Below are positions 47,213-59,270 of a stretch of DNA of 64,000 nt, one piece after another. The stretch's first letter is position 1; every line of letters starts with the position of its first letter. This DNA comes from Octopus vulgaris (lineage: Eukaryota), in assembly GCA_951406725.2 (NCBI GenBank), contig OX597827.1:70556001-70620000 (forward strand). Reading direction: 5' to 3'. Position numbers and translations under genes: made by a program. A model generated the notes under the pieces. The model made no database searches. It was given only the letters and a program-made list of their open reading frames with translations, and was not told the origin of the DNA.

Positions 47213-48219
47213 TTTATATATAAAATTTATATATAAATTGATATATACACAGACACACACATAGCTTCAATTATGTAATAACATATATATATACTCCAGT
47301 TTAAAGCAACACTTTATCTAAGCAATTGACTGAAAAAAATGATGAGCTGACTCCAACTGGAATCAAACCCACAAATCAATGCTTACACGGCTCCCTGTGC
47401 ATTCGATATACATATATAGATGCATATATATATATATATATAAGTAGGTGAATGAATTATCCTATGTTTATCGTCAGCATGGAAAATTCGTTTAACCGAA
47501 AACATATGTCGTTTAACTCGAAACATATGTCGAGAGTAAAGGAATTTTGTTAACATCTTCGTTCGACTCCATTCTTTCATTTATTTATATATAAGAGAAA
47601 AAAATCTATCAGAAAGGAACTCTATCTCTCTTAAAAAAATATCTTTTGATAAGCATAACAAATGCGCAACCGGTAAAAATAACTTTCACCTAATTAAATA
47701 CACTCTCCCTTACTTAAATTATTTTTGTCAGCATTTTCTTCATTTCCTTTTTATATATAGATGTATATAAATTATATATATATATATATTAAATGCTCGA
47801 AATATGAGACTAGAAAAACAGCCAACAACTGACAAAGGGGTGTTCTTTGTGTTGTTTGTTTTGTTTTCCATTTGTGTCTTTCGTTGTTCGAAAGAATAGT
47901 TCATGTTCCATGTACGTGCGCTTCATACTTTTTTGTTGTACTTCATTTCAGGTTGCTTTGATTTGCTCAGCTGGCAAAAAGGAGTTATCCTGCGACAGAC
48001 CGTCATCCCATCCAGGTGGGGAACATATACGCCATAGAAAATGGCCCTTATGAGTCTGTATGACTCGAGAAGGTAACTTTTCCCCCTGCCTGACGAAGAT
48101 TGCTAAAAACCATCCCATAGTGAAAAACAAAAGACCTGACAAAATGCTGGATGAACCCAGAAGCTTAGAATAATGCACAGGTGGTGTTAGAAATAGTCGA
48201 GATGGAGTAATCAACGTGG

Positions 48220-48465
48220 GTGGAGGTGCGTGGCTTAGTGGTTAGGGTGTTGGACTCATGATTCTAAGATTGAGGTTTCAATTCCTGGACCAAGCGATGC
48301 ATGGTGTTCTTGAGCAAAACATTCCTTTTCACATTGCTTCCGTTCACTCAGCTAGCAAAAGTGAGTAATCCTGCAAAGGACTGACATCCCATCCAGGTGG
48401 GAAATTTATACACCATGGAAACCAGGAGACAGGCCCTTACGAGTCAGCGTGACTCAAGTAGGAAT
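48220..48465 (+). mobile_element. SINE family H
   Basis: gtggaggtgcgtggcttagtggttaggg head and cactcagctagcaaaagtgagtaatc core. Confidence 0.8.
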
Positions 48466-48555
48466 TTTACTTTTTATTTTACTTACCTAGTAACTGTTGT
48501 TACTATTTACATTATTTACATTTGACGAATATTTGTTCTCATCCTTTTTGGTGTT

Positions 48556-48601
48556 AACACAACATTTTGGCTGATATACCCTCCAGCCTTCATCAGGTGT
48601 C
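48556..48601 (-). ncRNA. Minimal hammerhead motif (CpG-decayed)
   Basis: gacac CTGATGA a-ggctg-gagggtatat-cagcc AAAAT-G-TT gtgtt; GAAAC mutated to AAAAT. Confidence 0.5.
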
Positions 48602-48834
48602 TTGGGGAAATTTCAAACCTGGGTTCTCATTCCTAAGGTATTTTTCGATATTATTATTATTATTATGCCCGTGGGCATATGGCGTAGTGGTTAAGAGCGC
48701 AGGCTACTAACCCCAAGATTTCGAATTCGATTCCAGGCAGTGACCTGAATAATAATAATAATAATAATAATGATTTTAACAACAACATCGAAAACTACCT
48801 TAGGAATGAGAACCCAGGTTCGAAATTTCCCTAA

Positions 48835-48877
48835 GACACCTGATGAATGCTGGAGGGTATATCAGCCGAAACGTGTT
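48835..48877 (+). ncRNA. Minimal hammerhead-like motif
   Basis: gacac CTGATGA at-gctg-gagggtatat-cagc-c GAAAC gtgtt; the UH triplet appears deleted. Confidence 0.5.
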
Positions 48878-48891
48878 AATAATAAACAAGA

Positions 48892-49302
48892 GGCGCAGGA
48901 GTGGCTGTGTGGTAAGTAGCTTGTTTACCAACCACATGGTTCCGGGTTCAGTCCCACTGCGTGGCACCTTGGGCAAGTGTCTTCTACTATAGCCTCGGGC
49001 CGACCAAAGCTTTGTGAGTGGATTTGGTAGATGGAAACAGAAAGAAGCCCGTCGTATATATGTATATATATGTATCTGCGTGTATGTTTGTGTGTCTGTG
49101 TTTGTGCCCCTAGCATTGCTTGACAACCGATGCTGGTGTGTTTATGTCCCCGTCACTTAGCGGTTCGGCAAAAGAGACCGATAGAATAAGTATTGGGCTT
49201 ACAAAGAATAAGTCCCGGGGTCGAGTTGCTCGATTAAAGGCGGTGCTCCAGCATGGCCTCAGTCAAAATGACTGAAACAAGTAAAAAGAAAAAAAAAAGA
49301 GA
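48892..49302 (+). mobile_element. SINE family A, full length
   Basis: Family A head to tail. Confidence 0.92.
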
Positions 49303-49580
49303 GAATAAGGACAAATATCTGTCAAATGTAAATAATGTAAATAGTGTACATAATTCCTCATCTCTTAAATATAGAACTGTGTTGTTATTGTTTTTTAGCT
49401 CTGAGGTCAGTATTCTAGGGCTAGACAACAACATGAACTATGAGCAAAGATGTTCCAGCCATGACCACCACCACATCTGTTCCATACATCCCAGTTCTCC
49501 AATAGCCCAATGTACCCTTCAATTCGATTCATAAGACCACAGGGTGCTGTTTGAGGGAATATTTTGACTGACTGCTATTT

Positions 49581-49995
49581 ATTTCTTTACTGCCCACAAG
49601 GGGCTACACACAGAAGGGACAAACAAGGACAGACAGACAGACGGATTAAGTCGATTATATCGACCCCAGTACGTAACTGGTACTTGTTTAATCGACCCTG
49701 AAAAGATGAAAGGTAAAGTTGACCTCGGCGGAATTTGAACTCAGAACGTAGCGGCAGACAAAATACCTATTTCTTAACTACCCACAAGGGGCTACACACA
49801 GAGGGGACAAACAAGGATTGACAAACGGATTAAGTCGATTACATTGACCCCAGTGTGTAACTGGTACTTATTTAATTGACCCTGAAAGGATGAAAGGCAA
49901 AGTTGACCTCGGTGGAATTTGAACTCAGAACGTAGCAGCAGACAAAATACCGTTAAGCATTTCACCCGGCATGCTAACGATTCTGCCAGCTAGCC
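49581..49995 (-). mobile_element. SINE family D, head plus two body units
   Basis: 15-bp TSD gactgactgctattt at 49566-49580 and 49996-50010. Confidence 0.92.
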
Positions 49996-50448
49996 GACTG
50001 ACTGCTATTTCTAGTAAGACAAGTCAAGCAATGACATCAGTGCACAATCACTGATTCTGCATTAAATGCGGGGACAACAAGAGACAAACGTAGATCGTCT
50101 GTGAAGGCTGGAAAGAAACGAGGTGACCAGGATCCATTCGATGTGTAAAACAGTAACCTGAACGAAAAATCAAAGTGCATGTGAACTGTGGGAGCTGCTG
50201 GTTGATAGGAAAGACATCAGTCAGTGATACATAGGAGAAATAACTATACCTGATGTGGACGTGAAATGGATATATGGTTTGATGAAGAGAAGCTCTGCAG
50301 AGGAGAAAGCTCTGTGATGGTGGCAGTGGTGGAGCTAATGTCCCAGAAGAAATGGTGAGGACAGACTTCAAGACTTTGGACTTGGCAAATGTAATGAATT
50401 TGAAACTTGACAGGAGTGATATATAATATACTGTATAGTAGACATGTC

Positions 50449-58912: not shown

Positions 58913-59048
58913 TCACACACACACATGCTTTTGGTGCGAATGGTGTTTTATATAAGCTTAAAGCTTATGGTGATCCCATGCAATGACTAAGGAAAATAAT
59001 CTAATAAAGGGGCATATAAGCCCTGAAGAGAAAAATAGAAAACTTTTC

Positions 59049-59122
59049 TATCCGCGTGGGAGTCGAACCCACATCCCTTTGTTAACGGACTAAGTGTGTT
59101 ACCTTTACGCCAGCTATTCAGC
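59049..59122 (-). pseudogene. tRNA-like sequence (GTT in anticodon position), probably a repeat head
   Basis: A-box tggcgtaaagg, T-arm gtggg-ttcgact-cccac; acceptor stem does not pair. Confidence 0.55.
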
Positions 59123-59160
59123 TTCTATTTTCCTCTCAAATTTAAGAAGTATAATAGTTC

Positions 59161-59270
59161 GTACATTATTTTACATTTGACAGATATTTATCCTCATCTT
59201 GTTTGTTGTTAACACGTTTCGGCTGATATACTCTCCAGCCTTCTTCAGGTGTCTTGGAGAAATTTCGAAC
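59161..59270 (-). mobile_element. Third copy of the hammerhead-bearing body of the 48502-49380 element
   Basis: gacac CTGAAGA aggctg..cagcc GAAAC gtgtt at 59253-59211, then gtcaaatgtaaaataatgt. Confidence 0.75.

Follow-up and report, generated by a model that had tools for sequence, protein, structure and literature searches.

What kind of mobile element leaves a tRNA-like segment, a hammerhead motif and two mirror-image copies of one body side by side? This question is raised by a locus at 48495..49387 of a 64,000-nt stretch of Octopus vulgaris DNA (GCA_951406725.2, contig OX597827.1, positions 70,556,001 to 70,620,000 of the forward strand), which is called the window here. A reading made from the letters alone (the sequence-only reading) had proposed a candidate new type of short interspersed element (SINE), in which a tRNA-like head that RNA polymerase III (Pol III) transcribes is fused to a hammerhead-bearing body of Penelope type, processed by the ribozyme and mobilized in trans by a Penelope-like protein. 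The present analysis shows that the locus is a pair of pseudo-LTRs (pLTRs; LTR, long terminal repeat) of an autonomous Penelope-like element (PLE), with the footprint of PLE insertion. At a probability of about two thirds, we read it as a head-to-head pLTR pair without the open reading frame (ORF) of an element of the Penelope/Poseidon type, in which the tRNA-Arg-like start of the pLTR is likely a Pol III promoter and the short RNA would be mobilized by a dimeric PLE enzyme.

Architecture of the locus and its repeat family

The pieces listed by the sequence-only reading were all found in place, namely the inverted body, the palindrome, the A box, the B-box-like sequence, (AAT)n, CTGATGA and GAAAC, SINE A and the third body copy. 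Two features come in addition: an 8-bp target duplication (48495-48502/49380-49387) and a 33-nt tail, present on the right arm only. The parts are as follows.

48495..48502, plus strand: target-site duplication, left copy (TGTTGTTA, 8 bp; the family mode is 12-13 bp)
48504..48645, minus strand: left arm, pLTR body in inverted orientation and without tail (family body positions 1-142), whose long-form hammerhead has two mutations in its core
48646..48664, minus strand: left arm, start of the body and (AAT)n linker, inverted; the head is skipped
48665..48678, no strand: junction palindrome joining both arms, the element's native first 12 nt, here antisense
48673..48748, plus strand: tRNA-Arg-like head, A box 48680-48690, B box 48725-48734; in autonomous copies it stands just behind the ORF stop codon
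48749..48790, plus strand: (AAT)n(AAC)n linker of variable length
48791..48891, plus strand: right arm, pLTR body part 1, with the ORF start codon at 48806 and a short-form minimal hammerhead without cleavage triplet
48840-48846 and 48868-48872, plus strand: right-arm hammerhead boxes CTGATGA and GAAAC, respectively
48892..49304, plus strand: SINE A, an unrelated abundant SINE (>20 matches in the window), a later insertion
49305..49348, plus strand: right arm, pLTR body part 2, ending in AATAATGTA repeats, which are the tailless end site
49349..49379, plus strand: optional Penelope tail, ~33 nt, right arm only, equal to ORF codons 42-52 in autonomous copies
49380..49387, plus strand: target-site duplication, right copy
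59161..59270, minus strand: third body copy, a separate single arm, 5′-truncated and tailless, body 28-139; short form with CTGAAGA, abutting a different tRNA-bearing repeat

The inverted left body copy (48504-48645) is 91% identical to the forward copy, whose arm is interrupted by the SINE A insertion of ~410 nt. The segment 48502-48890 is predicted to fold into a single long hairpin (-189.7 kcal/mol, z -19), and the Rfam miRNA matches at the locus merely reflect this hairpin. Neither a tRNA nor a hammerhead was detected at the locus by Rfam and ARAGORN. The micro-palindrome is indeed present, but it is native to the element rather than peculiar to this junction. Further abundant SINE-like repeats flank the locus at 48218-48470 and 49585-50000.

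Across the genome, the linkage of head and body is consistent and not a chance nesting. The body follows the head in 24 of the 30 loci chosen by their head when judged by a script rule, and in three more by eye. Exact genome matches numbered 2,698 for the long form of the hammerhead core, 387 for the form lacking 3 nt and 462 for a 37-mer of the head; reversed patterns of core and head gave 0. When 60 fixed-position 10-kb samples were scaled to the 2.8-Gb genome, 10 sampled loci with a body and one with a head only corresponded to ~47,000 loci (22,000-86,000). ORF sequence was found in 1 of these 11 loci, so the family is mostly ORF-less; ORF-less copies measure about 270-400 bp per arm, within the size criterion of <700 bp for SINEs. 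Copies diverge by about 5-6% from the family consensus. A diagnostic subfamily of short copies was sought, and short and ORF-linked copies shared the same consensus with no fixed differences. Raw RNA reads and contigs from independent runs cover the unit, and they have loose ends at two 3′ sites ~33 nt apart.

Some copies of the family stand in unusual settings. In locus L130 (2200-4100; G000:C2:2734251-2735793), about nine headless units of body plus tail follow one another head to tail with a ~215-nt period; the layout is retrozyme-like, and long and short hammerhead forms are mixed. Two public Octopus gene models (P0001 and P0003) start with a translated pLTR copy, which probably reflects annotation errors or exonisation. 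When longer proteins were sought with the body peptide, only host genes of Octopus species came up, mis-predicted and with copies inserted in them.

The autonomous element and its insertion footprint

An autonomous PLE sharing the body was found in the genome through a weak reverse transcriptase (RT) match beside family copies, and the body is its pLTR. The unit runs in the order head, (AAT)n, body with the minimal hammerhead and the ORF start, 33-nt tail, then the rest of the ORF with its stop codon and, after 23 nt, the next head. In all 30 ORF-end loci (29 by BLAST and L213 by eye, some of them near-duplicates), the stop codon is followed by a fixed 23-nt spacer, the palindrome and the head. 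Of 30 loci chosen by their RT, 7 break off before the ORF end; the other 23 extend to it, and 21 of them have the head behind the stop codon. At the opposite end, 7 of 20 long loci show the tail running into the ORF start; one locus (L465) has pLTRs at both ends and another (L450) begins at the head. The majority consensus (minimum depth 6) is a unit of 2,641 nt with an open ORF of 834 aa, whose first 52 codons are the body plus the tail, and the longest open frame in the genome is 569 aa.

The protein has 2,989 homologues, of which P0007 is 55% identical and shares the N-terminal motif. Its C-terminus aligns with the Pfam GIY-YIG region of P0073 at 35% identity (E 3e-18). When the consensus protein was inspected against a Neptune-like family of 781 aa, the Cys-rich linker between the RT and the endonuclease (EN) was absent. 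Such a linker is a feature of Neptune and Nematis (PMC8557442; this and the other papers are cited for the parts covered), and its absence suggests the Penelope/Poseidon type. The sequence thus points to an EN-bearing (EN+) PLE of that type, with an ORF for an RT and a putative GIY-YIG-type EN. These defining features of EN+ PLEs were found: a single ORF with a PLE-type RT and, by the indirect comparison above, a C-terminal GIY-YIG domain; pLTRs at both ends that hold the ORF start; a minimal type I hammerhead in the pLTR; and an inverted truncated copy, a one-sided tail and a target duplication. Mobilization by a PLE RT/EN protein, as the sequence-only reading had supposed, is close to shown, because an autonomous element with the identical end resides in the same genome.

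Two other candidates for the partner were rejected. The Neptune-like family of 781 aa and its relatives have no homology to the body, their sole match being 18 nt long and inside their ORF. At L025, L038 and L060, headless bodies stand behind the 3′ end of another long interspersed element (LINE), presumably Dong/R4-like; these ends are read as insertions into the (AAT)n linker which part the head from the body. The Neptune-like family itself (L121-L129; G000 C16, C17, C6, C3, C2, C5, C7) is young and has many intact ORFs; upstream lies a second ORF of up to 479 aa, and the family also has a degenerate hammerhead-like motif and ends associated with (AT)n. A search for a solved structure of its protein gave none. 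A 3′ end fragment of such an element lies in the window at 47590-47790; it matches the ends of L106 and L112 at 84-95% identity. No relative of the family element was found in viral contigs.

The mirror layout of the locus is the most frequent one in the family. After 8 overlapping or duplicate loci had been dropped, 112 loci remained for pair analysis, with at least one near-duplicate pair still among them; 72 are head-to-head (divergent) pairs, 39 are single and 1 is convergent. Both ends are defined in 61 pairs, and in 56 of these one arm is tailed and the other tailless, while 5 are tailless twice and none is tailed twice (binomial P 6e-12 against one half). The flanks of 59% of pairs share a match of >=8 nt, as do those of 0.4% of the mismatched controls. 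The length of the target duplication has its mode at 12-13 bp (18/40), compared with 8 bp at the window copy. The arms of a pair differ in linker length and internal jumps, and often in hammerhead form within one insertion: 8 of 11 short-form arms are paired with a long-form arm. Inverted truncated copies and a one-sided tail of 30-40 bp are described features of PLEs (PMC8557442, PMC3846280), and the insertion in the window carries this footprint.

Transcription, insertion and competing explanations

The head was compared with 35 tRNA sequences from 30 loci of the genome, which cover only 7 amino-acid types. Its best match was tRNA-Arg(TCT), with 51 of 74 positions identical, and the four best matches were all tRNA-Arg; none of 300 dinucleotide shuffles reached the alignment score. 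The tRNA likeness of the head rests on this alignment to the genome's own tRNAs, ARAGORN and Rfam being negative. Many copies begin here. Among 53 arms chosen by their core that reach the head, 15 stop inside it, 26 terminate within a window of 14 nt at its start, 5 end just upstream and 7 run into the ORF. Counted over arms that reach head position 10, 26 of 38 end in this window, compared with 3 of 7 over the next ~290 nt of the ORF. Since 16 of 25 single-arm copies also start in this window, the pile-up of 5′ ends is not accounted for by two arms annealing. The A and B boxes, the tRNA likeness and this pile-up are consistent with transcription by Pol III, and the tRNA-Arg-like segment of the pLTR likely serves as an internal Pol III promoter.

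The hammerhead proposed at the locus is present as motif boxes, but no window copy holds an intact ribozyme: the forward copy has lost the cleavage triplet through a deletion of 3 nt, two mutations lie in the core of the inverted copy, and the third copy is likewise without the triplet. In the family, the consensus of the long form is a proper minimal type I hammerhead, following the minimal PLE design (PMC4209133), and the core is intact in 29 of 146 arms. In a comparison of 16 distinct relatives, 46 of 48 stem I cells are paired, by several kinds of base pair, whereas shuffling leaves 21; GUU, GUC and GUA occur as the cut triplet. The short form has lost 3 nt at the predicted cut, with the reading frame kept. 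This deletion occurs in 20 of 138 unselected arms, whereas the next commonest deletion occurs in 2; no variant linked to it was found in the body, and 2 of 400 positions were linked upstream. ORF-linked arms have the deletion in 12 of 43 cases and short arms in 2 of 49 (P 0.0025), and since only 3 of 19 arms chosen by the deletion are ORF-linked, this gap is probably smaller. A jump of the RT across cleaved RNA would explain the deletion, as might slippage or an unmarked subfamily. Processing by the ribozyme, which the sequence-only reading had assumed, found no support in the ends of the copies: the predicted cut shows no accumulation of 5′ ends, with 5 of 187 arms starting there.

The footprint suggests how the pairs may arise. 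In the anole PLE, the tail is the stretch between two start sites of reverse transcription, and the protein, a predicted dimer, cleaves both strands and extends them (PMC11167929). The strict rule of one tailed and one tailless arm, the stagger of 12-13 bp and the unlike arms together point to twin priming by a dimer. A short RNA would be made from the 3′ pLTR, starting at the tRNA-like head, probably by Pol III; since reverse transcription by PLEs begins within the RNA, this transcript would contain everything that the enzyme requires. The dimeric enzyme would nick both strands ~12 bp apart and prime a cDNA at each of the two end sites, tailed and tailless; extending in converging directions, the two cDNAs would be joined through microhomology, in many cases at the 5′ palindrome. 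Twin priming and such joining would yield the mirror layout, the one-sided tail and the target duplication. Cleavage by the hammerhead would take place only in dimeric form and would be dispensable for insertion. SINE A entered the right arm of the window copy later.

The sense strand of the consensus contains no TTTT, where 2.9 are expected under codon shuffling (P 0.03) and 4.6 under a looser null (P 0.005). For comparison, a Neptune-like ORF has 8, and TTTT is missing from just 1 of 43 relatives; the relatives inspected are T-rich in their 3′ regions, unlike the unit. As a support for Pol III transcription this is weak and only suggestive. A bolder version of the proposal would have Pol III read the whole protein-coding element end to end, a captured tRNA promoter having replaced the Pol II promoter, the 2.6-kb sense strand having been purged of TTTT, each 3′ pLTR being a SINE source and the 3-nt deletion being a scar of hammerhead cleavage in vivo. 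We regard this version as a tentative possibility only; if it were true, the ORF would belong to a rare protein-coding Pol III unit.

Several observations weigh against the preferred reading or its parts. GGGG is likewise absent from the consensus, several LINE ORFs of the genome are also low in TTTT, and the sole TTTT-free relative (L375, 1,992 nt) is the closest one and headless. RNA reads fall equally on both strands with no pile-up of starts listed, and neither an RNA 5′ end nor a polymerase was observed. Other PLEs have sharp palindromic 5′ borders of their pLTRs together with Pol II-type promoters (PMC3846280, PMC2377424), so that the pile-up by itself does not identify Pol III. As to the protein, no intact autonomous copy was seen among the genomic loci examined, the 569-aa ORF matches RVT_1 just under the cut-off (E 2.7e-6; 27.7 against 29.6 bits), and a direct Pfam scan of the family ORF missed GIY-YIG. 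The twin-priming model is drawn wholly from genomic scars.

How the short copies arise could be told differently. The head may be a passive relic of a captured tRNA or SINE in the same PLE, transcribed by Pol II, with the short copies being 5′-truncated cDNAs that stalled or annealed at the palindrome and the tRNA-like fold. This fits the presence of TATAA-like and TCACT motifs just upstream of the head, the reads from both strands and the lack of a fixed difference between short and ORF-linked copies, and PLEs normally have 5′-truncated copies and pLTRs with palindromic borders (PMC8557442, PMC3846280). However, arm ends are far denser at the head start than over the following ORF, and single-arm copies, which have no annealing partner, still end there. 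The unequal share of the 3-nt deletion in ORF-linked and short arms suggests different RNA pools, even if that gap is probably overstated, and the unit is free of TTTT where inspected relatives are T-rich. We therefore consider a passive head unlikely. Still less can be said for an independent non-autonomous SINE lineage, made of a tRNA head and a PLE end, that parasitizes a headless PLE, with the ORF-head junctions as chimeras. ORF-less copies outnumber ORF-bearing ones about ten to one, and the A/B-box pair was found by pattern search in 0 of 43 metagenomic loci with related PLE ORFs; ARAGORN found no tRNA in a partly overlapping set (43 of 79 loci). Yet the same ORF-head junction with its fixed spacer recurs at every ORF-end locus, headless ORF ends form no consistent class (2/23) and no diagnostic mutations mark a short subfamily. 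The separate fused SINE of the sequence-only reading is thus largely refuted and very improbable, because the head is already part of the autonomous element's own pLTR.

For the inversion step, the mirror arms might come from a single cDNA folded back at the palindrome instead of two primed cDNAs. Short fold-backs of 6-25 nt do occur at some junctions (e.g. L003, L031, L153), and self-priming has been proposed for rotifer PLEs (PMC3846280). But the arms end at different fixed sites in nearly all defined pairs and differ in linker length and internal jumps; the unlike hammerhead forms within one insertion favor two templates over a fold-back, and the window copy has head and tail on its right arm and neither on its left. 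Fold-back is accordingly judged improbable, and twin priming on short RNAs is retained in the preferred reading.

Relation to known elements and meaning

Ohshima and Okada reportedly described tRNA-derived retroposons of octopus in 1994. These retroposons are named OK, OR1 and OR2 and are reported to originate from tRNA-Arg; the present family may be one of the octopus SINEs already catalogued. In the literature search, no autonomous PLE with a tRNA head was found; Repbase, Dfam, SINEBase, supplements and the Zenodo library of PMC13282606 lay outside this search and may list the family. In the parts covered of the octopus repeat papers PMC13282606, PMC8967140 and PMC6962438, a pLTR with a tRNA head is not described.

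The closest known systems are EN+ PLEs of the Penelope/Poseidon type, namely the Adineta Pen2a_Av (PMC3846280), the anole PAc (PMC11167929) and the Drosophila virilis Penelope (PMC2377424). As far as the parts covered describe them, they too have a single RT plus EN ORF of ~840 aa that begins inside the pLTR, a minimal hammerhead overlapping the ORF start, an inverted 5′-truncated pLTR with a palindrome at its 5′ end, a 30-40-bp tail at one end and a short target duplication. Their pLTRs have Pol II-type motifs (TATA/Inr or DPE), whereas the octopus pLTR starts with tRNA-like A and B boxes, and the octopus family differs in that ORF-less pLTR pairs make up most of its loci. A tRNA-derived short repeat with a hammerhead, apparently transcribed by Pol III, is known from Schistosoma as Sm-alpha and Sj-alpha (PMC2770079, PMC6765202), so this combination is not new in itself. 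Compared by description, the Schistosoma repeats are derived from tRNA-Gln, have a canonical hammerhead and are often in tandem, while the octopus head is Arg-like; the portions of these papers covered name no autonomous partner or Penelope footprint, whereas the octopus short unit is the pLTR of an identified PLE.

Non-LTR retrozymes are likewise non-coding hammerhead repeats from PLE pLTRs and are proposed to be mobilized by PLEs (bioRxiv 10.64898/2026.07.22.740005). They are defined as tandem arrays of units with complete hammerheads, and no tRNA head is described in the part covered; the octopus family consists of dispersed inverted pairs (72/112) and single copies (39), with one headless tandem array (L130). 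A Pol III-type small-RNA segment within the terminal repeat of a retroelement is also found in the TRIMp3 elements Cassandra, Helenus and Ajax (PMC10886601), but these, as described there, are non-autonomous LTR elements, whereas in octopus the element is a PLE and the segment is present in the autonomous protein-coding form. With classical tRNA SINEs, as defined in the covered part of SINEBase (PMC3531059), the short copies share small size, high copy number and a tRNA-derived head with A and B boxes. Unlike these SINEs, they have no LINE-derived tail or simple-repeat 3′ end and integrate in the PLE manner. Their 3′ part is identical to the PLE pLTR and they leave the PLE footprint, in place of reverse transcription by a partner LINE. 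The short copies thus work like a SINE but fall outside the SINE definition.

A second, unrelated tRNA-bearing repeat lies in the window at 58940-59125 on the minus strand (L470-L484). It has 1,877 candidates and a unit of roughly 300 nt, forms partial tandems and head-to-head inversions, and often ends in (AT)n. No similarity to the family consensus or ORF was found. It is possibly another PLE-mobilized element with a Pol III segment.

At L043 (1300-1680), raw RNA reads differ by A>G at 25-27 and by T>C at 18-20 places, versus 4 and 2-3 in contig runs. This excess would fit A-to-I editing of double strands formed by RNA of the inverted arms, although the reads and the contig runs come from different organisms, which makes editing a tentative reading. 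More generally, transcripts of the mirror copies form long RNA duplexes that are a likely substrate for editing. Octopus annotations have probably split this single element into a SINE part and a Penelope part. With tens of thousands of copies, the unsolved mechanism of PLE insertion becomes open to statistical testing. For the biology of the family, the locus suggests a route to SINE-like families without a LINE, in which a tRNA-like promoter in a Penelope pLTR would make the end of the element itself a high-copy short retroposon.
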